A stretch of DNA of 64,000 nt from a virus (Duplodnaviria; Caudoviricetes). The notes beneath the pieces are model-generated. The model did no database searches and was not told the DNA's origin. It saw only the letters and a list, made by a program, of their open reading frames with translations. Location: positions 20,380 to 84,379 of the IMG/VR virus record IMGVR_UViG_3300032314_000513. The stretch is one strand, 5' to 3'. Shown in pieces: positions 37,189 through 62,491 of the stretch (the first letter of the stretch is position 1; every line of letters starts with the position of its first letter). The translations under genes were made by a program, and so were the position numbers.

Positions 37189-37818
37189 TTATACAATATT
37201 ATTTATTTCTAAGTAATTAACTCCGTCATTTTCCATTCCAATTTTACCTTCATAAAAAGAATTAAAAGCTAAACTTATTCTAGTTTGTGTACTAGTAGTT
37301 TCAGGAACGCCATGAAAAACATGAGAAGGGAATAATACCATAGCTCCTGTTCTTATTGGTAAATGATATAAATGTGAATTATAACCATTATGATTTTGAA
37401 CATCAAATTGCCAATGTGATATCTCTTTTGTATTAGTAAATACTATTTCATCATTATTAATATCTGCTTGTATGTATATAACACCACTAACAATACTATT
37501 AGGATGAAAGTGTTGGTGATGGTTTTCACCCGGTTCTGTAATATTTGTCCATGATTGAGTTAACTTTAATCTAACTTCATTTGGTCTTGCAGGGGAATTA
37601 ATTTCCATAAACCATTGGTCTAAACCTTCTTGTGCAAACTTTTTAAGATTTGCCATAGCAGGGTCTTCTAAAACTCTATGATTATATGAACCTTCGTTTC
37701 CTACGCTGAATCCTAATTCTTGTCCTTTAATACAATCTATCTCTTCTTTTGTAAACTCTCTACCAATATCAAATGTCATTAATGGAGTAGCAAATATTCT
37801 TAGTGTGTCTAATTTCAT
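37189..37818 (-). CDS. 2OG-Fe(II) oxygenase (TIGR02466-like)
   Basis: HHQHFHPNSIVSGV, LFPSHVFHGV, RISLAFN. Confidence 0.85.
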   Translation of the reverse strand: MKLDTLRIFATPLMTFDIGREFTKEEIDCIKGQELGFSVGNEGSYNHRVLEDPAMANLKKFAQEGLDQWFMEINSPARPNEVRLKLTQSWTNITEPGENHHQHFHPNSIVSGVIYIQADINNDEIVFTNTKEISHWQFDVQNHNGYNSHLYHLPIRTGAMVLFPSHVFHGVPETTSTQTRISLAFNSFYEGKIGMENDGVNYLEINNIV

Positions 37819-38459
37819 TATTTTATATTTAATTGATTAATTCCTTTTAATGGTCCGTCAATATATCCTACAGTTCCTGTTATGAAAGAGCTAAAAGCTA
37901 AACTAATTCTAACATAATTATAATTATTTACAGGTGTGCTATGGTATAAATTAGCAGGGAATATTATTATATCTCCTGTATTAACGCTATTATGAAAATG
38001 ACTAGCATTAAACGCAGTTGATTCTTTTGATTGTATCTGCCAATTAAATTCTGTTTCAGTTTTAGTAAAAATAATACTATCCTTATCTCTATAAGCATTA
38101 ATGTAAAGTACACCACTTAAAAATGAATTATAGTGTTTATGCTTTTCGTGAAATTTTCCCTGAGTTGTAAAATTTAACCAAGATTGTGTAATTCTTAATT
38201 TTACATCATTCGGGTTTATAGGGTCATATATTTTATAAAAGTATTGATTTAATGCTTCTTCACAAAAATATTTTATATCAGACAACCTTTCATCATCAAA
38301 AACATTATTATCATTTGAAACTATAGATTCTGTTTTTGTATTTAATTTATCATAATGTTCCAATACGCAAGTCATCTCATCTTTTGTAAAATCTCTGTTT
38401 ATTTTATTACTCATTATTACAGTTGGAAATAATGGTGTAATCTTACCTTCTTCTATCAT
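37818..38459 (-). CDS. 2OG-Fe(II) oxygenase (TIGR02466-like)
   Basis: HEKHKHYNSFLSGV, IFPANLYH, RISLAF. Confidence 0.85.
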   Translation of the reverse strand: MIEEGKITPLFPTVIMSNKINRDFTKDEMTCVLEHYDKLNTKTESIVSNDNNVFDDERLSDIKYFCEEALNQYFYKIYDPINPNDVKLRITQSWLNFTTQGKFHEKHKHYNSFLSGVLYINAYRDKDSIIFTKTETEFNWQIQSKESTAFNASHFHNSVNTGDIIIFPANLYHSTPVNNYNYVRISLAFSSFITGTVGYIDGPLKGINQLNIK

Positions 38460-39523
38460 AAATTTTGTTTTATTTCATTTAATACAGTTTGCATACTAAT
38501 TGATTTATGACATTCAAAATGTCTAGGCGTACCTTCATGCTCAGGACACCAAGTCCAATCTCCTTTATTAAACTTAAATACAGGATTATTCCAACAACTA
38601 TTGCAAACTTTATCATTAGTTATACGAATACAATTAGATTGAAATTCATGCTCTGAGTTAGTAAAGTTACTAATCATAACTGTCTTTTTTTGAATACCCC
38701 AATTTAACCAACTAATACCACTAGAAAGTCCTATAAACAAATCAGCATGATGTAAGTAATTCATAGCAACATCTAAAGATGTATCTTCTAGTTTTTCAGC
38801 CCCCACATCATCAGCTTCTTTTGATAGTTCAATTACTCTATAACCCATATTTTTCAATTCCTGTATTAATTCAGGCCAATAGTACCAATGTTTACATTGA
38901 GCAGTAGAACGAGTAGATATACATATATATTTATCTATTGGCTTTTCGGATGGCGTAAAAGCTATTCTAGGTTGTATTTCTTTATAATCTAATGCTAATA
39001 TATTACTAGCAGATTGTTGTAAAGGAACTGTTGCAGGATGAAAAGGTTCTTTATCTTTATCCCAAAACCAACCAAGTTCTACTTGAGCAACTATATTATT
39101 AACCACAACTCCTCTTCCAACAAACTCAAGTTCAGGGTAAACTGATTGAAATAGCTCATTTCTAAAAGAAGATACTATTACATGGCATTTGTATTTTTCT
39201 TGAAAATCTAAGCAATATGGAATCCACGCAATACTATCACCTAAACTTTTAGACTCAAATACAATAAATACTCTTTTGCCTACTATCTCATCTAGTAGGT
39301 TAATTTGTTTTACTACACGACCTTGATAAGTCAATATAATAGATAAATCAGATAGATATTTTCTATTAAGTTTAATCCAAGATTGTGGCTTTATTTTTGT
39401 TTCATAAATGCCTACATTAAATCTTTTGTCTATGACAGTAACATCATATTCTCTATTTTTACCTTCATCATTTAAAAGCTCAAAATGTAAACCATTTACA
39501 TGAGATATTTTGTATTGTATCAT
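38456..39523 (-). CDS. TibC/Aah-like protein O-glycosyl(heptosyl)transferase
   Basis: FESKSLGDSIAW, FIGLSSGISW, CNSCWN...CPEH...EC. Confidence 0.75.
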   Translation of the reverse strand: MIQYKISHVNGLHFELLNDEGKNREYDVTVIDKRFNVGIYETKIKPQSWIKLNRKYLSDLSIILTYQGRVVKQINLLDEIVGKRVFIVFESKSLGDSIAWIPYCLDFQEKYKCHVIVSSFRNELFQSVYPELEFVGRGVVVNNIVAQVELGWFWDKDKEPFHPATVPLQQSASNILALDYKEIQPRIAFTPSEKPIDKYICISTRSTAQCKHWYYWPELIQELKNMGYRVIELSKEADDVGAEKLEDTSLDVAMNYLHHADLFIGLSSGISWLNWGIQKKTVMISNFTNSEHEFQSNCIRITNDKVCNSCWNNPVFKFNKGDWTWCPEHEGTPRHFECHKSISMQTVLNEIKQNL

Positions 39524-40104
39524 CTTTCAGTATTTAAAAAAAATGTTTGAAATAATCTTCCATCGGAAATATTTCTTCCAAAATAGTCTAATGAGACATG
39601 GAATAAATCACCCCTATATAATATAAGCCTATTGTAAATATTACCTATTCTATCTACCATTTCCCATTTAGTATAATCAACTTGGTCTCTTGTATGTGGT
39701 CCACCTGTTAAATTTTCTTCTTCGCTATATTCTGAATGAATCCAACCTCTTAGTCCTGTTTTTTTGTGTCTATAAATACCTGTTCCTGCAGAAAGTGGTG
39801 CATCAGGAGTTAAATAAATAACACCTGCCCATGAAGTAGTTCCATCAGTATGAATCCATGACCTATCGGCTGATGTTGTGTATTGAAAACATCCTGAATC
39901 TTTACCTCCCCACCAAGTTACTTCTCCGCAAAGTGGTCTAATTATATCTTGTATTAAATCTTTAACTCCATCGTTTAGAAAAGGTTTAGTTCTTCTACCG
40001 GGAAAATGTCCTGCATCTTCATAATATTCTTGTTCCATAGCAAACTTTCTTACTTCATCTACATTACTATAAAAATCAGCTATTGATATTACTTCTAGTC
40101 TCAT
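39520..40104 (-). CDS. DUF6445-like 2OG-Fe(II) oxygenase
   Basis: ADFYSN, WIHTD, NRLILYRGDLFH. Confidence 0.75.
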   Translation of the reverse strand: MRLEVISIADFYSNVDEVRKFAMEQEYYEDAGHFPGRRTKPFLNDGVKDLIQDIIRPLCGEVTWWGGKDSGCFQYTTSADRSWIHTDGTTSWAGVIYLTPDAPLSAGTGIYRHKKTGLRGWIHSEYSEEENLTGGPHTRDQVDYTKWEMVDRIGNIYNRLILYRGDLFHVSLDYFGRNISDGRLFQTFFLNTER

Positions 40105-40107
40105 ATT

Positions 40108-41127
40108 TTAAATATTTTGATATAAATTAATGTATTTGTTTCTTATTGTATTTGAATCAAAGTTTTGGAATTGTTTTACAGCGTTATATTTCTTTTCTAA
40201 ATTTTTACATACATTTAACCAATCGTAAGATTCTCTTTTTATTGACATTTCTACAACTAAAATATCATATCTGCTAGATACAAAATTTATACCTTTAATA
40301 ACTTCTTCAGTATTTAATTCATTCATAACATACATTCCCTCAATTTTATTAGTTCCTTTATATGTACCAACAATTGGAAGGCAGCAACTTGCAGCTTCTA
40401 ATAATGTTAAATTAGGATGTCCAAACTCTAAATTAGAAGGATGTAAGAATATTGTATGGTCTTGAAATATCTTTAACTTTTCTGCTTCAGTTGGGTTTGA
40501 GTCTATAATAGTCAATTTATCATAATCTAATAAGTCTTTATGAATCTCAAAAAACTTAGTATTTGCATCTGCTCCAACAATAGTTATAGGTAAATTTAAT
40601 GATTTTGCAGCCTCAATACCATATCTAAAACCTTTCCTATCTGCACCATAATCACCTGCAACTCCATTATTAGCACACATAAGTAGCTTATGGTTACTAT
40701 AATCAAAATTAGGTGTATAGTAGCTAGTATCTACTCCATGAGATAGATAAAATAACTTATCTGTATCATCAAAATAATCCACAACATATTCTGCAGGAGC
40801 TAAAGAGAATATAGATTTCTTCATTGCTTCTAATTGTTCTCTATAATTACTACTATTTTTACCATAATGATAGCTATGGTGGTCATGAGTTGAATAAACA
40901 TACTCAATACCTCTTTTATGAGCTTCAATACAAAGGTTTGCTACATGAATATGAACTATATCATATATTTTAGGGTCTACATTGTTTAAATATAATAAGT
41001 CTAATTCATGTCCTAGTTTTTTAAGGTTTTTAGTATACTCATCCATGATTAATTCAGTTGCTCCCCATCCCCTTTGTCCTGTTGGTAAAATAGGTAAATT
41101 ACTACTTATAACTTGTGCTATTCTCAT
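40108..41127 (-). CDS. GT4-like glycosyltransferase
   Basis: WGATE, LSHGVDT, FLHPSNLEFGHPNLTLLEAAS. Confidence 0.85.
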   Translation of the reverse strand: MRIAQVISSNLPILPTGQRGWGATELIMDEYTKNLKKLGHELDLLYLNNVDPKIYDIVHIHVANLCIEAHKRGIEYVYSTHDHHSYHYGKNSSNYREQLEAMKKSIFSLAPAEYVVDYFDDTDKLFYLSHGVDTSYYTPNFDYSNHKLLMCANNGVAGDYGADRKGFRYGIEAAKSLNLPITIVGADANTKFFEIHKDLLDYDKLTIIDSNPTEAEKLKIFQDHTIFLHPSNLEFGHPNLTLLEAASCCLPIVGTYKGTNKIEGMYVMNELNTEEVIKGINFVSSRYDILVVEMSIKRESYDWLNVCKNLEKKYNAVKQFQNFDSNTIRNKYINLYQNI

Positions 41128-43829
41128 ATAAATTTCTTTTCTTGTTTGTCAATTAATGAAAATCCTTCAGCTTGAGTCGTTAATCTATTGTGAACTATTC
41201 CAAATTTGTATGGACTACCATAGAAAACATGATTAAAGTACATATCTGCGGCATCCCACTTCTCTGTTCTTAGTCTTTCAAATAACCATTTTTTAACACT
41301 TTTAGGAAACCCAATACATTGAAGTCCAATTATATGGTCTGTAACAAATAATAAATCTTGGTCAGGTATTACCTGCTTTACAGGTGATTGTAACCATCCA
41401 TGCTCTAATGTTTTTACATCTCCAAAAGACATATAACCAATTTTATTGTCTTCTATAATTTGATAAGACCTTTCGACCTTATTTACAAATTCATGTATAG
41501 GCACTTCTATTATGCAATCCCCTTCACATACTATTAAAAAGTCAATATTATCATCAAACTCACTCATTATCCCATTTTTGAAGGATTCAAAACATCCATA
41601 ATGTGATGGGGTGAGGGCTGTTCCCAATTCTTTAACTTGCTGCTCATTGAAGAGTTCCATTGATACACAATTGGGTCTTTGACAATTGTACTTAGGTGGC
41701 AAATCTGCATAAGGGGTATTGGTGTGTATGATATATTCCCACCCATAGTTGGCCACATGCTTGAGTGATTCTCTACTTTTTTGTTCTCTTTCATCATTTC
41801 TAGTTGTTTGTAAGTGTACTAATCTAATTTTAGGTTTTCTGTTTTTAATCTTATAATGACCTGTATTTTGATATTTATGAAGAGTTTTATCATTTAAAAT
41901 ATACTTTTCATTTTTATATATTCTATCTCCATCATAAAAGTCAAGCTCTATTTCAATTTCACGATTTTTGTATTCAAATTCTTTTTTAAATTCTTTTGTT
42001 TTATCAATTTGCCATCTAAATATGAAAAAATCTTGTCCTCCTTCACGCATAGTAATATTTATCTTTCTATCATCTACATTATAGGTATAGAAATAAAACA
42101 TATAAGTATTAGGCTTATTTACTACAGGTATTATTGAATAATATTCAGAATTAGATGCCACACCTAGGCCGCTATGCTTTAATAGAGTTTCTTCTTGATT
42201 ATGTTCAATAATATAATCGTTTTCTAAACCCTTCAGTTTTTTAACTAAATAATCTTCAAGAAAGTTTTGAGCACCAATATTTTGACAAATATTATTATAT
42301 TCCTCTGCAATTCTTACATCATCAAAAGTATTTAAAAAGAAGTCTACTTCAAAAGCCATACCATTTGTCTGTATACCTTTACCAAAAGGGGTATTTAAAC
42401 TTGCTAAATAGGCTTTTGGAAGATATGGATTTGTTTTGTCTCCAATATCAAATGCCTTTTCAACTTGTGGTATATCTCTAGGGTCCAATACTACATCATA
42501 AGTAGTATAAAAGAAAGCTTCATATCCTAATGATTTTGCGGCCTTAGCACCATTAAATAAATTAGTAAGTACAGTCAATGATTGGTTGCTATTTTTTAAA
42601 CCATTAATATTAATTTCAGCATGGTAATCATCTGTATATCTATAAAACCTAGTATAATATGAATGATGTGTCAATGGGTTATGCTCATCATAAATATAAT
42701 AATCTACCATTTTTTGAATATCATCATCAACAGGATAATGAGACAAAAGCATAATTTTTCTACCCAATGGCTTTAAGCTATTGATAGTATCTTTTGTTAA
42801 TTGTTTTCTACTTTCTAAATTAGGCCAAGTACCTACAATTATTAATTCTCTTTTATTGTTAGTTGGTTTTGCTTGTGTCAATTGTAATACTTTTTCAGCA
42901 TCCTCAGTAAGATTGCCTGTTAAATAATGAAAGTCTTCGTACCCATTCCACCTATTCAAATAAACATCTAGGTTATATATTAGCTTGGGTATTTGCTTAT
43001 ATTCTGCAGCCTCTTTAATTACAATAGGGTTTAATTCCTTATTGCCTCTATCTCCTTTAGATGGGAAGAAGAAAAGGTCAGCAGCTTTGATAAAGTCTTC
43101 TGTATCGCCTCTTTCACCCCAAATAATGCAATTTTCAGGCTTATTGTCCATCAATGGTTTCCAATAGCTTTCAAAATTACCTGCTTGATTGCCTAAGAAG
43201 TGGAATTTAATTTTATAATCTTTAAGCTTTTCTCCCATCTCAAATCCATATTTCTGATTCTTTCTAGGAGTAAATAAACCAATAATTACTGCATGTTTAT
43301 AATCATGCTCAAGTCCTAATTTATCTCTTGCTATTCTTTTATCTGAAGTTTTGGCATCTATTGGGTATTCAATAATCTCTTGATGTACATTTAAGTGGTC
43401 GTATTTCATCATATTATATGGACTAACAAATACAAACTTATCAGGCATCCATTTTTTGTTTCTTGGATTAAAGCTGCTATCATGTGTTGTTTCTACTATT
43501 TTCCAAGTTTTTGATTCAGAATATAAAAAACTTGACATTTTATCATCCATAAACATCTCAGGGAACTCTTCCATAGATACCACATCAGGATTGAACTGTT
43601 GCATTATTTCTACAAGTTCATTATATTTATCTTCTCCTAAAGAATGAAAGTTTTGTTCTCCTACTAAATTAATAATTCTATTCCTTTGAACAACAAAAGC
43701 CCAAGCTAAAAAAGCATGTTCAATGACTTTAATTTCAAAATCATTTTTTATTAATTCAATTTTGTTAACAGTTACCTGTGGAGCACCTCCTGTGGATAAA
43801 TGTGGGGTGATAATTAGTAATTTCTTCAT
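41124..43829 (-). CDS. Multidomain glycosyltransferase (GT-B, GT-A-like, GT25-like)
   Basis: LSTGGAPQ...ELNPIVIKEA; SHYP...YDVV; HYGCFES...EGDC. Confidence 0.75.
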   Translation of the reverse strand: MKKLLIITPHLSTGGAPQVTVNKIELIKNDFEIKVIEHAFLAWAFVVQRNRIINLVGEQNFHSLGEDKYNELVEIMQQFNPDVVSMEEFPEMFMDDKMSSFLYSESKTWKIVETTHDSSFNPRNKKWMPDKFVFVSPYNMMKYDHLNVHQEIIEYPIDAKTSDKRIARDKLGLEHDYKHAVIIGLFTPRKNQKYGFEMGEKLKDYKIKFHFLGNQAGNFESYWKPLMDNKPENCIIWGERGDTEDFIKAADLFFFPSKGDRGNKELNPIVIKEAAEYKQIPKLIYNLDVYLNRWNGYEDFHYLTGNLTEDAEKVLQLTQAKPTNNKRELIIVGTWPNLESRKQLTKDTINSLKPLGRKIMLLSHYPVDDDIQKMVDYYIYDEHNPLTHHSYYTRFYRYTDDYHAEININGLKNSNQSLTVLTNLFNGAKAAKSLGYEAFFYTTYDVVLDPRDIPQVEKAFDIGDKTNPYLPKAYLASLNTPFGKGIQTNGMAFEVDFFLNTFDDVRIAEEYNNICQNIGAQNFLEDYLVKKLKGLENDYIIEHNQEETLLKHSGLGVASNSEYYSIIPVVNKPNTYMFYFYTYNVDDRKINITMREGGQDFFIFRWQIDKTKEFKKEFEYKNREIEIELDFYDGDRIYKNEKYILNDKTLHKYQNTGHYKIKNRKPKIRLVHLQTTRNDEREQKSRESLKHVANYGWEYIIHTNTPYADLPPKYNCQRPNCVSMELFNEQQVKELGTALTPSHYGCFESFKNGIMSEFDDNIDFLIVCEGDCIIEVPIHEFVNKVERSYQIIEDNKIGYMSFGDVKTLEHGWLQSPVKQVIPDQDLLFVTDHIIGLQCIGFPKSVKKWLFERLRTEKWDAADMYFNHVFYGSPYKFGIVHNRLTTQAEGFSLIDKQEKKFI

Positions 43830-44788
43830 AGTTCATTTTTAATTGCAGTAATAACTTGTTCTATAGATGGATGACATTCGTAGGTTTCTTTCTTCTCTAA
43901 ACAACCTATTAAAGGTTGTACATAATCGATTGTAGGCCAATATTCAAGAGCATATTTCATATTAGATGAACAATGTAAACCACATCCGCCTTTAATATAT
44001 GTATGATTAAATCCTTGTTTTCCTTCTCGATAAGGTGTTCTAAATTCAGGATTGATTGCCGAACCAAGCTCAAATATATGTGTCTTAGTTGTACCTGCTA
44101 AATGTAGAATACCACTATCCATTGTGATAACAGCTTTGGCATTGTTTATTATATACCAAGTTTGTGATATAGAAGTTTGATTCATTAAATTAATAATATT
44201 ATCATTCATTTTATGTACAGGTTTTTGTACATTAAAGAATCCTGTTTCAGAACTATCTTTACCTACTGCTACAACCATATAACCCATTGATATTAAATGT
44301 TCAGATAATTTTATCCAATTTTCTTCTGACCAAGTTCTATTAGGCCAACTGTTAACAGGGTGTATAACAACATATCTTTTATTACCTGATGTACTTTTGT
44401 CACTAAGTCCAAGTTTACAATCATCTTCTTCTGTTGGTTTATAAAAGCACTCCATTTCATCTTGTTTAAGCATAAATCCTAAATGAATAGCATGAAATTG
44501 TCTAATATCCATCATATTATGCTTCATCTCTACACCTCTTTCATCTTTTTTTCCAACTAGATAAAACGAGTTGTGCATTATATAATTTTTGTTAAAATAT
44601 TCTTTATCTATAGATGAAGCTTTATAGCTTTTTTCTACATAAGGATTCATTTTAAATATCTCAGGCATATTTGAGATAACAATTATTTTTCTTTGATATG
44701 CTTCATAAAGCTTTTTGATAGTAGGAGTAGCACATATCAAATCTCCCATACCATTACACTCTTCTAAGTTTAAACAAACTGTTTTCAT
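43826..44788 (-). CDS. GT9-like glycosyltransferase
   Basis: GMGDLICATP, NRTW, MDSGILHLAG, Cys-rich tail. Confidence 0.85.
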   Translation of the reverse strand: MKTVCLNLEECNGMGDLICATPTIKKLYEAYQRKIIVISNMPEIFKMNPYVEKSYKASSIDKEYFNKNYIMHNSFYLVGKKDERGVEMKHNMMDIRQFHAIHLGFMLKQDEMECFYKPTEEDDCKLGLSDKSTSGNKRYVVIHPVNSWPNRTWSEENWIKLSEHLISMGYMVVAVGKDSSETGFFNVQKPVHKMNDNIINLMNQTSISQTWYIINNAKAVITMDSGILHLAGTTKTHIFELGSAINPEFRTPYREGKQGFNHTYIKGGCGLHCSSNMKYALEYWPTIDYVQPLIGCLEKKETYECHPSIEQVITAIKNEL

Positions 44789-45273
44789 TAATTTTTATCT
44801 TTTAAAATTAAATTTGTAGTAATTACCCACCTATCTTCTGTTGAATTATTCACTTGTGTTTTATGTTGAAGTCCACCGGGAAAAATTATTACATCACCAT
44901 TTATAGTAGGTAATGGTTTCCAATTTGAATTTTCTTTATATTCAAAGTACCCACTATTGTCAGGAATCCTTAAATAAGCTGCTGCTACCATATCTACATT
45001 AGGATGATTATGCTCTATAGTATACCCACCTTTGTTTTGTACATTAATCCAACTATTACCAATAAAAAATCTATCACCAATTTTTTTACTTAACCAAGTA
45101 TAAAATGGCTTAAACTCTTCCATGTTATGAGGAGAAAGTTCGTTTAAATAAGATGTTTTACCATTTCTAACTAAGTTCATTTCTGCTTTTTCTATATTAA
45201 TTAATTCATCACATATTGGATTTAATTTCGCCCAATCAAATTCAAAATGTAATTTATAAATTCTTGTTATCAT
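44788..45273 (-). CDS. 2OG-Fe(II) oxygenase
   Basis: EHNHPN, IFPGGLQH. Confidence 0.8.
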   Translation of the reverse strand: MITRIYKLHFEFDWAKLNPICDELINIEKAEMNLVRNGKTSYLNELSPHNMEEFKPFYTWLSKKIGDRFFIGNSWINVQNKGGYTIEHNHPNVDMVAAAYLRIPDNSGYFEYKENSNWKPLPTINGDVIIFPGGLQHKTQVNNSTEDRWVITTNLILKDKN

Positions 45274-45892
45274 TTTTTTCAGGAATTAAAAAATATTCAT
45301 TGTTAAATATTTGGTCATAAGAACTTGTTATAACCCATCGTTCTTGTCCTGATTTATTTTGTTGTGTCCTGTGTTTAAGCCAACCGGGAAAGATTAAAAC
45401 ATCTCCACTTATTGTTGGTATTTCTTTCCAAGCCCAACTTGGGTCGTTACGATAGTAAAATGATTTTAAATCTTCTAAAGGGTCTTTAGCTTCAAAATAA
45501 CCACTGTTTTCAGGTATGTTTAGATAAGTAGAAGCTACTAAAAAAGTATTTGGATGCTTATGGCCAAGAGTTTGACCTTCATCGTAAGTAACATTCATCC
45601 AACTATTAGTTAAAACATAATCATGGAAATCACTAAAATAACCCATTCCTTTGGTAGCTACTTCATTAATCATCATTTGTAGCCATTCATAAAAATCTTT
45701 AAATTCATCAAGCATGTGTGGTTGCATAGCGTTTTGATGAGAAGAACCACCTTTAGTTACCAAAGCAAAATCTGAAGGAGCAGAATGTAGTAATTCTTGA
45801 CATTTTGGCTTAATCTTTTCCCAATCAAAATTGTAATGAGCTTTAAATATATAAGAACTGTAAGGATTAATTATATCAATTCTATTTTCCAT
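45254..45892 (-). CDS. 2OG-Fe(II) oxygenase
   Basis: GHKHPN, IFPGWLKH. Confidence 0.8.
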   Translation of the reverse strand: MENRIDIINPYSSYIFKAHYNFDWEKIKPKCQELLHSAPSDFALVTKGGSSHQNAMQPHMLDEFKDFYEWLQMMINEVATKGMGYFSDFHDYVLTNSWMNVTYDEGQTLGHKHPNTFLVASTYLNIPENSGYFEAKDPLEDLKSFYYRNDPSWAWKEIPTISGDVLIFPGWLKHRTQQNKSGQERWVITSSYDQIFNNEYFLIPEKNDNKNL

Positions 45893-55692: not shown

Positions 55693-56510
55693 AAAAATTA
55701 AGCTTTGTATGTACATCATACCGCAGATTTACATGTGTAGAAAGAATTGTTGCTCAATTTCATGCACAAACATACCCAAACAAGGAATTAATCATTTTTA
55801 ATACAGATGAGGAGTACCCTTATAGTTTGGGATTTGAGGATAGCTCTATAATAATTGTAAATAATGGAATAAACTACCAAACAGGAACTCCTTATGAAAA
55901 TAGAGGACAGATATGTAGAGATGCTGTAACACATGCTACAGGAGATTATTTCATGTTGGCAGATGATGATGACATTTATTTGCCTTGGCACATGCAACAA
56001 GCTGTAGATGGTATTGAGGCTAATCGAAAAGATGCTTGGAAACCTGAGCAAAGCTTTTTTGCTACACCCAATAAAGTACAAATGGTAATGAATACACTTG
56101 AGGCATCAGTTATTGTAAAAATGGAAAGGATAAGAGAAATTGGATTTAGAAGCGATATTACAGGATATGAAGGCCTAAGTTGGTACACTCAATTAAGAGA
56201 TGAAAAGCACTTAGATGAGCATAACAAGTATTATGTTCCTTCTTATTGTTTTAATTGGTCTGACCCTCATGAGATAGCAGGTCATAAGCAAAGTGGTGCT
56301 ATCGGTAGTCCCAATAATTTTGAAAATCATAAAGAAGCATCAAAAGATTATGCTAAACGACCTTTAGAGAAAATTTCTGAAGAAAAATTAAGGGAAACCT
56401 ACAAACCATATTATCATTATTTAAGAAAACATGTTGAAGATTTCCCCTTGGAGTTAATAAGTAAGTATATCCCTACTCAGGTATTTCAGGTAGAGAATTT
56501 ATTGTATTAA
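55689..56510 (+). CDS. GT2-like glycosyltransferase
   Basis: QTYPNKELII, ADDDDIY; start moved to the ATGA overlap. Confidence 0.85.
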   Translation: MKKLSFVCTSYRRFTCVERIVAQFHAQTYPNKELIIFNTDEEYPYSLGFEDSSIIIVNNGINYQTGTPYENRGQICRDAVTHATGDYFMLADDDDIYLPWHMQQAVDGIEANRKDAWKPEQSFFATPNKVQMVMNTLEASVIVKMERIREIGFRSDITGYEGLSWYTQLRDEKHLDEHNKYYVPSYCFNWSDPHEIAGHKQSGAIGSPNNFENHKEASKDYAKRPLEKISEEKLRETYKPYYHYLRKHVEDFPLELISKYIPTQVFQVENLLY

Positions 56511-57507
56511 TTACAGAAGCTTGTTTTAATGAAGTAACTTTCTTTCCATCAATAATTTTAATGTTATTGTCCTCATCTAAGCTTAAAATAGCACCACCCT
56601 CAAGTTGGCCATCCATTTCTACTGCTTTTTTGCCATAGAAATCTTTTGGTAACATTTTAGATAACTGAATTAAAGCAGTCTTTCTGACCATCCACATTTG
56701 TGGGTCTTTTTTGTCATTAAAATATAAATCATTGTCATAACGAGAAAGGGCCTTAATCTTTAAAATTTCCCCTTTTGACAATACTTGGAACTGATAATCA
56801 CCATTCTTTAGTTTTGCCACCGCATAAACGAATTTAAGCGTATTAGCAGACCTTTCTGTATCAAAGTTAGGTTTATGTATAATATTCTGCTCAAGGCCGT
56901 AAATCGCCTCAAAATGGTCTCCTTCGTATACACATTCAGTATGTATCTTGGTTATCTCTCCTGACCTTAAAAGGATGCTTACAAGTCCTTTATAGCCAAT
57001 TAATGGTGTAACTGTCTGTTTGCCATCAATTCTTCGTGGAATTAGGTAAAACTCACCTAGCATATCACTAGGGATTAAGCCAATTTCTGCTCCTGCTAAT
57101 ATAGAGGCAAATAAGGAACTAGGATTCTCTTTGAACGCATCTATTAGCTTTGGGTTCTTTTTGAGCTCAGAAACGACTATTTGAACAAATTGAGCAGGTT
57201 CTATGTTATGCTTTGATAACAAGTTTGGTAATACCTGCTTTTTATAAGCTTCAAGACTATTATTAAATAGTTGAATAGCTGTTAAAGGTTTTGCAGGGGG
57301 TGGAGGGGGTGCTATCTCTTTCTTTTCTTCAGGCTCAATTACTTCAGGCACCTCATCTTTTTTTGCCCTATTTCTGTTTCTTTGGTCCATTTCTTCTTTG
57401 GATGCAGTTGTGTTTAAAGATACAGGGCTTGTCGATGGTTCTTTTGAAGCAACATCTTCTTTGTTGTCAATTGAGAAAATGTCAGTTTGTTGTAATTTTT
57501 CTTTCAT
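56473..57507 (-). CDS. recT: RecT single-strand annealing protein with disordered N-extension
   Basis: AEIGL...YLIP...IGYKGL, YAVAKL, MVRKTA..QL.K.LP. Confidence 0.88.
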   Translation of the reverse strand: MKEKLQQTDIFSIDNKEDVASKEPSTSPVSLNTTASKEEMDQRNRNRAKKDEVPEVIEPEEKKEIAPPPPPAKPLTAIQLFNNSLEAYKKQVLPNLLSKHNIEPAQFVQIVVSELKKNPKLIDAFKENPSSLFASILAGAEIGLIPSDMLGEFYLIPRRIDGKQTVTPLIGYKGLVSILLRSGEITKIHTECVYEGDHFEAIYGLEQNIIHKPNFDTERSANTLKFVYAVAKLKNGDYQFQVLSKGEILKIKALSRYDNDLYFNDKKDPQMWMVRKTALIQLSKMLPKDFYGKKAVEMDGQLEGGAILSLDEDNNIKIIDGKKVTSLKQASVINTINSLPEIPE

Positions 57508-58248: not shown

Positions 58249-59049
58249 TTAATAATGGATTTCTTCTATCAAAGGTACATCAGTTTTTTTATTACAGTTA
58301 TCAAAAAATGGACATTCTAAGCACCTTATATAATTAGGTCTAGCCTCAAGCTTTTCAGGATTGTTATAGTGAAAATCTATATAATTTTTCATTTTAGGAA
58401 CAAAAATGTCCTCATGTAATTGTAAATGCTCAGGCTGAATATTAGTTTTAATAATTTTTGCTTTTTTAGGGTCTTTTGAAGAAAAAATAAAATAATAAAA
58501 AGGTATATCTTCAATTCCTAATGTTTTGCTAATCAAGTATTTATAATGTATAGGCTGTAATAACTGCTTTGATTTATAAATTAAACTTTCTGTATGCCAT
58601 CCATATTCATTCCATTTATCGTCTATTAATGCACTATACTTCAAATCAATGATACATTCTTCTCCTTTCCATTTTGCTCTAATATCAGATATGCCACTAC
58701 TTCCTTCAAAAGACATATACTCACCAATCTTTAAAATCTCAATATCGTGTTTTTTGACTATTTCTTTAAATAAATCTGCTGACTCTGCCGCCCTCTCGTA
58801 ATCTACAGCATACTTCTCTTTTGATGTACCTGCATATACCATTTTAGGCTGAGGTATTGGGTCACCCTCTCTAACATAGTCAGTAGCTTTATACTCAAAA
58901 TAAATTCCGAGTTTAGCAGCTTCACTAGAAGGAGTAGGTAGTTTTTCAAAGTACTGCTTACGGATTTTTAATCCACAGCCTCTTACATTTTCATCGTAGT
59001 AATCCACATAAGCTTTTAATAAGCTTTGGGAAAGATTTGGTTTTTGCAT
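58249..59049 (-). CDS. PD-(D/E)XK exonuclease (RecE/Cas4-like), probable RecT partner
   Basis: LSQS, GISD, IDLK, Q..HY, CLECPF. Confidence 0.8.
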   Translation of the reverse strand: MQKPNLSQSLLKAYVDYYDENVRGCGLKIRKQYFEKLPTPSSEAAKLGIYFEYKATDYVREGDPIPQPKMVYAGTSKEKYAVDYERAAESADLFKEIVKKHDIEILKIGEYMSFEGSSGISDIRAKWKGEECIIDLKYSALIDDKWNEYGWHTESLIYKSKQLLQPIHYKYLISKTLGIEDIPFYYFIFSSKDPKKAKIIKTNIQPEHLQLHEDIFVPKMKNYIDFHYNNPEKLEARPNYIRCLECPFFDNCNKKTDVPLIEEIHY

Positions 59050-59193: not shown

Positions 59194-59499
59194 TTAATCG
59201 TTTATAAAATAATCTCTTTTATGTTCTTTTAAATTTTTTGCTTGGTCAATTACTCTCATAGCATCTTCAATCGTTTCATATTCTACTACTATAGCTTCAT
59301 CTTTTAATATCTCTTCATTTTTGAATTTATGCCTATCGCAGTATAAATTATCCCCTGTAGTTAAGTAAATATTTTTTTTATAATCAAAAGCGTTGGTCAC
59401 CCTCATTAATGAACAGCTTTTAAATTCTGTATGATAAAACCTACAGCTAGAACACTTTCTTATCATTGGTAGGCTTTTTTGGTTTAAATAAAATTCCAT
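59194..59499 (-). CDS. Small Cys-containing protein
   Basis: CSSC...C...C; real start may be Met12. Confidence 0.6.
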   Translation of the reverse strand: MEFYLNQKSLPMIRKCSSCRFYHTEFKSCSLMRVTNAFDYKKNIYLTTGDNLYCDRHKFKNEEILKDEAIVVEYETIEDAMRVIDQAKNLKEHKRDYFIND

Positions 59500-59508
59500 G
59501 TTTTTGTT

Positions 59509-59961
59509 TTAAAATAAGGTTATTTGTTGATTTTCAACTGAAGTTTCTTCTATTTTATAAACTTCTTTATAGAATGAAATTACGGAATCATTTACAATAT
59601 TCAAAAATTCAACCATGTCATCAACCATGGTCGTTTTACCTTTAAGAACAGTCATTTTTCTATATTCATCGTATTTTTTAGTTACAAAGCCATTTCCTTT
59701 AAAATTAGTTAATACTCTGTTAGTTTCCTTCTGTAACATATCTATATGCTTCTTAAACTGCCCTCTGTGAGATTCGTGGGCTTTAATCATATCTGTAAGC
59801 TGCCCTGAAAGGCCTTTTGAGTTTTCAGTATAAATGATATATGCCTTATCCCCTAGTTTTTCAGCTAATCTTCTCCTTTGAGCCTCAGTCAGCTCAGGAA
59901 AATCTTTCTCAAATACCTCTAAAAAAGATTGGAAAATATTGTCTTTTAAATGATTTTTCAT
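59509..59961 (-). CDS. Hypothetical helical protein
   Basis: In-operon ORF. Confidence 0.65.
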   Translation of the reverse strand: MKNHLKDNIFQSFLEVFEKDFPELTEAQRRRLAEKLGDKAYIIYTENSKGLSGQLTDMIKAHESHRGQFKKHIDMLQKETNRVLTNFKGNGFVTKKYDEYRKMTVLKGKTTMVDDMVEFLNIVNDSVISFYKEVYKIEETSVENQQITLF

Positions 59962-60019: not shown

Positions 60020-60056
60020 AAGAGCAGTCTAGGTTTGAGCCATTCTGCTCTTTTTT
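60020..60056. terminator. Hairpin between early genes
   Basis: AAGAGCAG/CTGCTCTT stem with 17-nt loop; the T run is on the plus strand, opposite to local gene direction. Confidence 0.35.
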
Positions 60057-60798
60057 AGTTTATTTCCTTCTCCTCTTCGTTTAAAATTGGTTTCTCAGGT
60101 TCTATAAGTTGTTTCCATTCTAAGCTCACACTATCTAAATAAGTCTGTATCATATCTCTATTTGCAGGGGTATCTCGATAATAGATGCAATCGGTTTTGT
60201 AACAAATGAAATCCTCACCAAGCATTTTAGCCATTATCATCATGTGCTCATAACAGATATAACGAATGTTATTGTAAACTTTTTGCAGAATAGGGTCAAA
60301 TTTGAGCTCAATTGTTTTATTGGTCATTTCCCCATCCTTTATGATAATATACTCTTTATGGGATGCTAAATTGGCAAGAGAGGCCAATCTGAGAGCTTTA
60401 TCCTTTAGCAAAAGTCCTTTTTGATATGTTTTAGGCTTTATAATTTCCTCTAAGTAGGCAATACGCCAATAAGCATGGTCTACATCAGTAGCCGTTATTT
60501 TGCCTCTAAAACTACGGTTTTTGGCGTTCCAATAATTTACAGGTAGTTTTTCCTTTTCTCTGATTCTACGATTTTCTAAATAGTCCTTTACATCGTTTTG
60601 GACACTCCTAAATATCCAAACACCTGTTGTAACCTTCTTTTTTGGGGAAGGGAACAGAAATTTTCTATTTTGCCAAATTAATTCATCGGAGAATGACCCT
60701 TTTCGATAATAAGCTATTCCTTTCTTACCTTTTAACTTATCTAGTATAATCTTTTGTTGGTCGTGTCTCAGGATGGTAAATCCATTTTGTAAAGACAT
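60055..60798 (-). CDS. Minimal family-B DNA polymerase-like palm protein
   Basis: Motif A TDVDHAYW and motif C YKTDCIY; no exonuclease domain. Confidence 0.65.
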   Translation of the reverse strand: MSLQNGFTILRHDQQKIILDKLKGKKGIAYYRKGSFSDELIWQNRKFLFPSPKKKVTTGVWIFRSVQNDVKDYLENRRIREKEKLPVNYWNAKNRSFRGKITATDVDHAYWRIAYLEEIIKPKTYQKGLLLKDKALRLASLANLASHKEYIIIKDGEMTNKTIELKFDPILQKVYNNIRYICYEHMMIMAKMLGEDFICYKTDCIYYRDTPANRDMIQTYLDSVSLEWKQLIEPEKPILNEEEKEIN

Positions 60799-61731: not shown

Positions 61732-62061
61732 CTAAATAAATTTATAATAGTCTCTAACAATTTCATTAAGCCTAACTCCTAACAATAATTCCCTACTTGT
61801 TACAGTTAAATGGAACTCAGTTCTTAAAAATTTATCTATCAAAATGCTTGATACACAGAGTAATGTGTATTTTTCAATACTTCTATGTGTAGCTAAGTAT
61901 ATATCTTTCCATTTTAAATTATTTTCATCAGCAATAGTTTTAAATACTTTCTCAAATATTTCATATTGATATTTACATTTATCTATGTTCAAACTATATA
62001 TAAATTCATTTTCTAGGTATTTATGCTTTCGTAACTTCAGCATAACGGAACTTGGTATCAT
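61732..62061 (-). CDS. Hypothetical protein
   Basis: In-operon ORF. Confidence 0.6.
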   Translation of the reverse strand: MIPSSVMLKLRKHKYLENEFIYSLNIDKCKYQYEIFEKVFKTIADENNLKWKDIYLATHRSIEKYTLLCVSSILIDKFLRTEFHLTVTSRELLLGVRLNEIVRDYYKFI

Positions 62062-62491
62062 TTTCTTTTAAAGGTTTTTCGTATGGTCTAATAAGATTAA
62101 AGTCTAAAAACTTCTGTAGTTCAAATCCCTGTTGCTTAAAGTTCAAAAAAATTCCCCTTTCTTCAATAAGCTTCTTTGGGAACACATAAAGCTTGTCATC
62201 ATCTACTCTGAGAGCTATGGTTTTAATATGGATTAGGTTACTGCTCAGGATTTCCCAATTAAATCCAAATCCTCCTGCTTTTCTATGGTAATGTTTAGCA
62301 CAATCTCTAACGCAGTTAAATGTGGCTGTTTGCACATCTACATAACCTAATAAACGAGGCTTATTAAGGTTAGCTAGTTTAAGATGGATGGTAGCCCAAG
62401 TCCAATCTTTGTTTTCATCGTAGAATCCTCTAACGATTAGTGCATTACCTTGTTTGTCTTCTTTCCCAAATACTTTACTTCCAATGTCCAT
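62021..62491 (-). CDS. Hypothetical phage protein
   Basis: In-operon ORF. Confidence 0.65.
   Translation of the reverse strand: MDIGSKVFGKEDKQGNALIVRGFYDENKDWTWATIHLKLANLNKPRLLGYVDVQTATFNCVRDCAKHYHRKAGGFGFNWEILSSNLIHIKTIALRVDDDKLYVFPKKLIEERGIFLNFKQQGFELQKFLDFNLIRPYEKPLKENDTKFRYAEVTKA

Follow-up and report, generated by a model that had tools for sequence, protein, structure and literature searches.

The Locus and Its Two Conserved Genes

The DNA considered here, referred to below as the window, is a stretch of 64,000 nucleotides constituting the final 64 kb of the 84,379-bp IMG/VR virus record IMGVR_UViG_3300032314_000513 (Caudoviricetes), and its GC content is about 30% throughout. At 3.2 kb from the right end of the record lies a gene for a protein of 247 amino acids (aa), P0001, which we call mini-PolB after the family B DNA polymerases (PolB) that its predicted fold resembles. 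An earlier note on this DNA, made from the letters and their open reading frames (ORFs), had pointed to three strings in the translation that recall PolB motifs, and both the ORF and the strings are present as placed there: TDVDHAYW at T104–W111, KALRLASLANL at K134–L144 and YKTDCIY at Y200–Y206, with 41 residues between the last of these and the C-terminus. The gene directly upstream encodes a 292-aa protein, c1, and the two genes together form the subject of this report. Coordinates of both, of their motifs and of the neighbouring features are collected in Table 1.

An Unannotated Family with Invariant Residues

The mini-PolB family is large, with 355 clusters at 90% identity and 281 representative clusters at 50%. 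Its members are nearly all about 235–276 aa in length and those that carry a name are called hypothetical, apart from one obvious misannotation. Mini-PolB found no match in Pfam, PHROG, NCBIfam, PADLOC or the PDB sequences, a profile search of the PDB with the family returned nothing, Pfam matched none of 80 family members, and a tblastn search against 50,697 isolated phage records was likewise without a match. The protein had been described earlier as standing alone, and this agrees with the size of nearly all homologues (235–275 aa) and with the failure to find longer or fused forms among proteins of 493–2000 aa, although the latter constitutes weak evidence; a few family members of 300–400 aa carry extensions without any known domain.

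Conservation was counted in an alignment of 80 members that are 21–58% identical to the query. No residue other than M1, D105, K134 and D203 is invariant, the last three being present in 80/80 sequences each, and V66, A109, Y110, W111, A114, I120, Y175, R179, M186 and F197 are conserved in at least 90% of the sequences. The earlier proposal that the two aspartates essential to a polymerase palm are retained is therefore borne out by D105 and D203 in diverse homologues. In the motif A-like segment, position 110 is always aromatic (Tyr in 76 sequences, Phe in 4), W111 occurs in 78/80 and position 107 is Asn in 45 and Asp in 15. The resulting family consensus, D-x-N-H-A-Y-W, with Asn or Asp at +2 from the Asp and an aromatic residue at +5, has a spacing that we take to be that of PolB motif A (DxNSLYP), the aromatic residue presumably being the steric-gate Tyr (phi29, RB69 and KOD numbering). 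Following the invariant Lys of the motif B-like helix, R137 is present in 54/80 sequences and the position at K+4 is Asn in 17/80, as in the KxxxNS of PolB; T202, which precedes the Asp of the motif C-like segment, is found in 63/80. Judged from this alignment, the conservation of the motifs is not a matter of chance.

The resemblance to PolB motifs is incomplete, in that motif B is only partly like its PolB counterpart and motif C carries a single Asp (TDC as against DTD). Active PolBs with a single Asp in motif C have been described for mavirus, pipolins and others (PMC11161782), and because these active enzymes share the same state, a single Asp is compatible with activity.

Predicted Fold

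An AlphaFold2 model of mini-PolB, computed with the family alignment as input, reached a predicted local distance difference test score (pLDDT) of 94 and a predicted template modelling score of 0.87. It begins with a beta-alpha-beta-beta-beta module (residues 7–50) that weakly resembles half of a glyoxalase-type module (Z ~5), and proceeds through helix 61–75, strand 101–106, helices 109–116 and 122–129, helix 134–145, hairpin 148–165, a long helix 169–196, hairpin 197–201/204–208 and helix 211–223 to strand 228–231. D105, K134 and D203 are placed by the model near a strand end, at a helix start and at a hairpin turn, respectively, which are the positions of PolB motifs A, B and C.

The palm fold postulated in the earlier note was recovered with Foldseek, VIA-align and BFVD. 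Foldseek against the PDB gave weak scores (best E 5.7e-3), yet every match was a right-hand polymerase, whether PolB, reverse transcriptase (RT) or RNA-dependent RNA polymerase. VIA-align, run independently of Foldseek against 48,161 representative chains, placed PolB-type chains at ranks 1–8 (Z 8.8–7.3), among them polymerase (pol) alpha (8.8, over 137 aa), the herpes simplex virus polymerase (8.5), Pyrobaculum PolB (8.3), RB69 (7.6), a herpesvirus helicase-primase accessory chain (7.6) and phi29 (7.3, over 224 aa), with non-PolB chains scoring lower (PolA 6.2, Y family 6.0, RTs 5.8 and cyclases about 5). In a second look, each of the 50 top rows was PolB-type, the best being Xenopus pol alpha (8g9l_A), with Z 9.6 and a root-mean-square deviation (rmsd) of 4.0 over 140 aa, model residues 80–239 matching chain residues 836–1061; KOD/Tgo chains followed at Z 9.0–9.3 and rmsd 2.9–3.6 over 135–141 aa (84–239 against 385–603). 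The BFVD matches carried the names "DNA polymerase", "divergent family B DNA polymerase" and herpesvirus helicase-primase accessory proteins (best E 1.4e-5), and the nearest named clusters in the ESM Atlas were PF03175 (0.88) and PF00136 (0.86), both below the 0.9 reliability mark and hence leads only. We trust the fold assignment because the list of matches is coherent, the domain is covered to about 87% and each invariant residue sits on the element expected of it (motif A strand, fingers helix, motif C hairpin). On the strength of the model, mini-PolB is solidly placed as a PolB-like palm with fingers; we do not assign it to PF00136 or PF03175.

The description of the protein as a palm lacking both exonuclease and thumb is also borne out by the model. 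The aligned ranges of the PolB chains (385–603 in KOD, 836–1061 in pol alpha) are the palm and fingers of those enzymes. Only the 50-residue N-terminal module precedes the palm and there is nothing DEDD-like in the 247 aa, and at the other end the protein stops about 40 residues past motif C, the KOD match ending at residue 603 of 774. The 97 residues separating D105 from D203 are taken up by three short helices, a hairpin and a long helix, which leaves no space for the insertions TPR1 and TPR2, which have been named as diagnostic of protein-primed PolBs (PMC11161782).

Palm cores also occur in other nucleotidyltransferases, and mini-PolB could in principle be a nucleotide cyclase or other signal synthase of the GGDEF, class III or Cas10-like kind, or else a terminal transferase directed against host defence, counter-defence having been among the earlier suggestions. 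Domains of the GGDEF and adenylyl cyclase type do have a palm core and matched the model at Z ~5. PolB chains score far higher, at 8.8 in the same search and at 9.6 in the second look, and their alignments span 135–147 residues including the fingers helix; moreover, the motif A spacing is that of PolB and the mini-PolB sequence contains no GG(D/E)EF motif. As to counter-defence, there is no PADLOC match and the gene sits inside a recombination/replication module, a DNA-metabolism context rather than an anti-defence island; that suggestion is unsupported, and we regard this whole group of alternatives as very unlikely.

The herpesvirus helicase-primase accessory subunits are inactivated PolBs. 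Their appearance among the structural matches would be in line with mini-PolB being a catalytically dead structural subunit derived from PolB, similar to UL8, that would do no more than scaffold the replication or recombination complex to which it belongs. However, invariance of two Asp and one Lys over 80 sequences, down to 21% identity, is the pattern of an active site, and it would be most surprising if the protein were merely a scaffold.

The Partner Protein c1

The neighbourhood of mini-PolB was compared across 26 loci, comprising the window and 25 related viral loci obtained with a 29-sequence alignment as query, which three contigs of metagenome-assembled genomes (MAGs) extend to 29. 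ORF clustering placed c1 upstream of mini-PolB in 24/26 loci, and a hidden Markov model (HMM) of c1 located it in the remaining two, where it is likewise adjacent. The HMM also detected it next to mini-PolB in 10/10 larger genomes, and the arrangement recurs in the three MAG contigs, so that the pairing, which holds down to 28% identity, is obligate in the material examined. The c1 family, with 337 clusters, is about as large as that of mini-PolB.

The model of c1 (pLDDT 85.6) starts with a helical part and continues with an alpha/beta middle (residues 116–190) and a linker rich in Lys; long helices with a SHOCT-like end make up the C-terminal part. T127, S158 and Y182 are near-invariant and, judged by conservation, are mere candidates for covalent linkage to the 5' ends of the genome.

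When mini-PolB and c1 were modelled as a complex they scored 0.61, as against 0.00 for the best of three controls. This mark is reached by 58/80 solved complexes and by 2/110 mismatched pairs, counts that are rough here since our own alignments were used. The predicted interface lies on the enzyme side entirely within the N-terminal module (residues 6, 8, 10, 14, 17–18, 21, 26 and 42–45) and on the c1 side at residues 91–97, 192, 204 and 217–228. Agreement between the complex runs is given as "at least 0%", with a pLDDT for c1 of at least 76. The modelling supports, rather than proves, the binding of c1 by mini-PolB.

Genome Ends

Several relatives of the virus have inverted terminal repeats (ITRs). 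Two genomes labelled by IMG/VR as carrying ITRs were confirmed, with repeats of 653 bp at 100% identity (G007) and 132 bp at 99% (G010), and G011 has a 48-nt near-terminal inverted repeat. In G005 the first 114 nt, and in G003 the last 57 nt, recur as exact inverted copies 0.6–0.8 kb from the other end, which indicates collapsed ITRs, this being the pattern expected when an assembler collapses a long ITR. For G003 the collapsed ITR of about 700 nt is proven by a MAG contig (L063:1-700) that joins the left end to the inverted right end, its first 666 nt matching the G003 left end (79%) and the next part the reverse complement of the G003 right end (92%). Direct terminal repeats were detected in none of the 26 records, and no protelomerase was found in a search of the genomes.

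The contig from which the window derives (G000) shows neither inverted nor direct terminal repeats of its own. At its right end the close relative G001 runs about 125 nt past the point at which G000 stops, and this extension is the reverse complement of the GT-rich left end of G000 itself (nt 4–76, 77% identity).

The virus group as a whole has linear genomes with ITRs of 0.13–0.9 kb that are often collapsed by metagenome assemblers. In several members the inner part of the ITR is GT-rich and the outer part AT-rich, and most records are labelled by CheckV and IMG merely as linear.

Search for Known Replication Enzymes

Pfam models were searched in 10 genomes (G000, G002, G003 and G005–G011) of 65–146 kb, five of which are at least 90% complete. 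These yielded no match to PolA, PolB, protein-primed PolB (pPolB; PF03175), Pol III alpha, Prim-Pol, single-strand DNA-binding protein (SSB) or PolB-type exonuclease, and the PF00136 and PF03175 searches did not pick up the mini-PolB gene itself. DnaB helicase is confined to the 146-kb G011 and an RNase_T exonuclease to G006, where it lies far away from the pair; no primase was found in these genomes. The contig of the window is no exception, having no Pfam-detectable polymerase and no PolB-type exonuclease.

It had been suggested that mini-PolB could be one half of a split polymerase. In the sense of a normal PolB whose exonuclease or thumb resides on a separate protein, this was rejected: no DEDD or PolB-exonuclease domain is conserved in the genomes, the RNase_T gene of G006 is distant from the pair, and the partner has no recognisable polymerase domain.

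The lack of any recognisable polymerase A, B or C or Prim-Pol in the 10 genomes, together with the universal occurrence of the pair in the group and the invariant catalytic residues, could be taken to mean that mini-PolB and c1 constitute the main replicative polymerase, c1 contributing DNA binding or a thumb through its basic region and coiled coil, and a host clamp providing processivity, such that the whole 65–100 kb is copied with or without protein priming. Thumbless divergent phage polymerases with substitute domains do exist (divPolA2, PMC11348598). Nevertheless, a palm of 160 residues with short fingers, and with no thumb, TPR2-like clamp or proofreading, is not expected to be processive and accurate over 84 kb; dependence on the host is likely in any case, given that no helicase, primase or SSB was found; and in the modelled interface c1 docks to the N-terminal module, with no evident placement at the exit of the DNA. 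A role as the main replicase is accordingly considered unlikely, and the earlier view that the protein would be too small for a replicase seems reasonable.

The missing primase could alternatively be accounted for if mini-PolB were a primer-independent initiator analogous to the primer-independent PolB (piPolB) or PrimPol, starting short DNA primers from scratch, at origins or at intermediates of recombination, which host Pol III would then extend. Its small size would suit a distributive initiator, and PolB palms such as that of piPolB can start de novo, also without the first Asp of motif C (PMC5695915, PMC11161782). But piPolB is a full-length PolB with exonuclease and thumb, and neither the obligate partner nor the ITR architecture would be explained, so that we rate this as quite unlikely.

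A Proposed Role at the Ends of the Genome

Our preferred, and still tentative, explanation is that mini-PolB and c1 form a minimal polymerase of two subunits which performs protein-primed synthesis at the ends of the linear genome. Mini-PolB would be catalytically competent, combining a PolB-type palm and short fingers (residues ~80–240) with a 50-residue N-terminal docking module, and would act as a heterodimer with c1. In the active site, D105 and D203 would be the metal ligands, K134 would contact the triphosphate and Y110 would act as the sugar gate, favouring deoxynucleoside triphosphates (dNTPs) as substrates. The pair would handle the ends of the linear ITR genome, c1 serving as protein primer, that is as terminal protein (TP), and/or as a DNA-holding subunit that takes the place of the missing thumb. 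As expected of a TP, c1 is encoded next to the mini-PolB gene in linear ITR genomes. Mini-PolB would add the first nucleotide or nucleotides and then synthesise a limited stretch at the ends, the bulk of the 65–100 kb genome being copied by host enzymes together with the adjacent exonuclease and RecT recombination functions, in a scheme that would be akin to the "end patching" seen in linear Streptomyces replicons. The analysis shows the fold, the invariant residues, the obligate pairing, the modelled interface, the ITR ends of relatives and the lack of any other recognisable polymerase; that the enzyme is active and uses dNTPs, that priming is by protein and that the work is shared with the host are inferred.

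Among the functions that had been considered earlier for the 247-aa protein, those of a protein-nucleotidylating or primer-synthesising enzyme working with the neighbouring 60817 gene product, c1, are the ones now favoured, in view of the synteny, the modelled interface and the ITR genomes without another polymerase; those of a split half and of counter-defence find no support.

A number of observations weigh against this scheme. With respect to the enzyme, no sequence-profile method, be it Pfam, the PDB profile search or hhalign, ties the family to PolB, and when the family profile was compared by hhalign with phi29 Pol and with an alignment of eight pPolBs, the probabilities stayed below 1%; homology to PolB is not claimable from sequence because the profile searches are without a match. 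The PolB assignment draws on a predicted structure with middling Z scores, and best VIA-align Z scores of 7–8 are common for models without a clear relative. Equally, D105 and D203 are assigned as probable PolB metal ligands from their secondary-structure positions and the aligned ranges.

With respect to the partner, one of the three complex runs scored 0.00, the other two, which passed, scoring 0.61 and 0.62. No similarity was detected by hhalign between c1 and the TPs of phi29, the PRD1 type or the Bam35 type, and fold searches with c1 in BFVD and the PDB gave no known fold but only helical-hairpin look-alikes of its C-terminus, the alpha/beta middle being barely tested by them; a search of the ESM Atlas named clusters produced no usable match. 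A covalently bound TP is putative for all of these viruses.

With respect to the ends, the ITR of G000 itself is deduced from its relative only, and hairpin telomeres could also go with ITRs, even though no protelomerase was found. Proximity of the pair to a genome end is a tendency only: the pair lies 7–23 kb from the contig ends in G006, G007, G008 and G010, and in G005 it reads towards the end.

Gene Neighbourhood

The c1/mini-PolB pair heads a module that includes a PD-(D/E)XK exonuclease and RecT (Table 1), for which the ORFs of the 26 loci were clustered. The exonuclease, c2, and the annealing protein, c3, represent a two-component recombinase located downstream of the pair and retained in 22/26 related loci. 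No family match was obtained for c5, a possible zinc ribbon. In three loci (L021, L022 and L028) the pair is present and recognisable recombinase genes are not nearby.

This synteny would be expected if mini-PolB were a gap-filling or repair polymerase of the recombination module, extending RecT-annealed 3' ends after resection, with c1 as a DNA-targeting subunit and no priming at the ends. A small thumbless palm recalls the distributive repair polymerases, and chains of the Y family were aligned with the model at Z 5–6. On the other hand, the pairing with c1 (29/29) is tighter than that with RecT and the exonuclease (22/26), the three loci lacking nearby recombinase genes have kept the pair, and host repair polymerases would normally suffice. 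Gap filling consequently appears unlikely.

For the end-priming role that we prefer, the location of the operon is of interest. In G009 and G011 the c1–enzyme operon starts 87 and 400 nt, respectively, from the contig end and reads inward, and in other genomes the pair is 3–23 kb from an end. The right end of G009 (L058, last 14 nt) holds a run of 12 G that looks like a sequencing or assembly artefact and the contig, which stops 87 nt upstream of the partner gene, therefore probably falls short of the real terminus.

The three MAG contigs carrying the module (L063, L064 and L065) were binned as Gammaproteobacteria, Ignavibacteria and Sediminibacterium, a disagreement that suggests binning artefacts rather than host information.

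Elsewhere in the window, at 37189–45892 on the minus strand, are four genes for 2OG-Fe(II) oxygenases (PF13759), two for GT9 heptosyltransferase-like proteins, two for GT4-type glycosyltransferases and one DUF6445 gene. The first 20 kb of the contig, which precede the window, encode two N6/N4 DNA methyltransferases and a MoxR-type AAA_5 ATPase (L002:3730-5844 and L002:11768-16660), and the same region encodes a 610-aa protein with an ART-PolyVal ADP-ribosyltransferase domain as well as an LPD29 "polyvalent protein" domain.

Table 1. Features at the mini-PolB locus, in window coordinates.
Feature	Position	Strand	Remarks
c3, RecT-family single-strand annealing protein, last gene of the module	56473..57507	(-)	PF03837, E 4.7e-29; phrog_148, E 4.5e-46; 22/26 loci
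c2, PD-(D/E)XK-type exonuclease with C-terminal Cys cluster (CxxC...C)	58249..59049	(-)	phrog_69 "exonuclease", E 7.5e-7; 22/26 loci
c5, 101-aa Cys-containing protein, possibly zinc-binding	59194..59499	(-)	CxxC and further Cys/His; 14/26 loci, including distant ones
c12, 150-aa conserved module gene	59509..59961	(-)	11/26 loci, all closer relatives; no significant family match
mini-PolB, 247 aa (P0001)	60055..60798	(-)	ORF with ATG start and translation; unannotated viral family
PolB-like palm and short fingers (predicted), residues 80–240	60079..60561	(-)	VIA-align matches to PolB chains
Motif C-like Y200-K-T-D203-C-I-Y	60181..60201	(-)	D203 80/80; turn of hairpin 197–201/204–208
Motif B-like helix K134-ALRLASLANL	60367..60399	(-)	K134 80/80; start of helix 134–145
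Motif A-like D105-V-D-H-A-Y110	60469..60486	(-)	D105 80/80; near C-terminal end of strand 101–106
N-terminal beta-alpha-beta-beta-beta module, residues 1–50	60649..60798	(-)	Predicted docking surface for the 292-aa partner
c1, partner protein, 292 aa	60817..61695	(-)	Directly upstream of mini-PolB in 29/29 loci; candidate terminal protein or DNA-binding subunit
c11 (109 aa) and c9 (156 aa), two conserved small genes on the upstream side of the pair	61732..62491	(-)	11–12/26 loci; no family matches
Right end of assembled contig (G000)	63712..64000	.	ITR itself missing; cut about 125 nt or more short

Comparison with Known Systems

The PolB enzymes (PF00136), exemplified by pol alpha, KOD/Tgo, E. 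coli Pol II and RB69 gp43, share with the mini-PolB model the core of palm and fingers (Z up to 9.6, rmsd 2.9–5.3 Å over 135–146 residues), and the three motif-like segments follow one another as in PolB and fall, in the model, on equivalent secondary-structure elements, with a basic residue opening the fingers helix and an Asp at the motif C turn. They are, however, 550–1500 aa in size, whereas the 247-aa mini-PolB has no N-terminal domain, exonuclease or thumb, its fingers are cut down to short helices and it is accompanied by a separate, unrelated partner protein.

The protein-primed systems of phi29 (gp2/gp3) and PRD1 (P1/P8), whose polymerases belong to PF03175, show a similar arrangement in that a gene for a partner or TP of about 260–290 aa is followed by that for the polymerase in a linear ITR genome, and the inward-reading operons of G009 and G011 match the TP–Pol order in a PRD1-type phage and in phi29. 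The phi29 Pol aligns over 220–227 model residues with Z 7.3–8.2. The PRD1-type TPs have been traced to the little-finger/PAD fold of the Y family (PMC11161782). Mini-PolB differs from these enzymes in lacking TPR1, TPR2, exonuclease, thumb and a PF03175 match, the genomes are 4–6 times larger, and covalent priming is here only proposed.

A precedent for a palm without exonuclease is provided by the pPolB-S1H palm of the Tlr1-like helicases of polinton-like viruses and transpovirons, which has also lost the first Asp of motif C and is predicted to be active in protein-primed elements (PMC11161782). Those palms are embedded in large TP-vOTU-palm-helicase proteins that retain TPR1 and TPR2, in contrast to the stand-alone 247 aa found here in bacterial viruses. 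None of the literature searched describes a PolB palm of about 250 aa that stands alone, and the nearest precedents are these exonuclease-less palms in large Tlr1-like proteins (PMC11161782) and the thumbless divergent phage PolAs (PMC11348598).

For linear replicons of Streptomyces, bulk replication is cellular and the ends are filled by protein-primed end patching involving Tpg, Tap and host polymerases (PMC4513846, PMC3273824). End patching has also been proposed for the haloviruses PH1, SH1 and HHIV-2, tailless membrane viruses with linear genomes, ITRs and terminal proteins and with no recognisable polymerase (PMC3622292). Linear replicons with ITRs are common to all of these, but the viruses considered here show no homology to Tpg or Tap and a minimal polymerase of their own is proposed. 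When halovirus PH1 was scanned with the HMMs of both families, nothing was found.

The herpesvirus UL8-type subunit has a PolB-derived palm that is among the structural matches (Z ~8). UL8 itself is a protein of about 750 aa without the catalytic residues, which in the mini-PolB family are invariant.

Implications

Two abundant viral families hitherto labelled hypothetical, with about 340–355 clusters each at 90% identity, can now be given a tentative annotation, and a replication signature consisting of the partner, mini-PolB, the exonuclease, RecT and ITRs is added to a widespread group of uncultured freshwater viruses. It is possible, if rather doubtful, that mini-PolB is the smallest known DNA polymerase, a 247-aa palm which together with a new terminal protein or thumb substitute replicates a linear genome of 65–100 kb, or just its ends, by protein priming. 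Were this correct, the lower size limit for PolB-type enzymes would drop to a core of about 160 residues assisted by a separate partner, protein-primed replication would not need the large architecture of TPR1, TPR2, exonuclease and thumb, and a natural minimal scaffold would become available for the study and engineering of nucleotidyl transfer.

The pair also offers a testable candidate for a question that was raised for SH1, PH1 and HHIV-2, namely how the ends are copied in ITR viruses without a recognisable polymerase; the search for a polymerase in those viruses had assumed that "DNA polymerases are large enzymes" (PMC3622292). If the present proposal is true, SH1, PH1 and HHIV-2 would be worth searching for equally small palm proteins and, should the end-priming role hold, these viruses would have found a new solution to an old problem.

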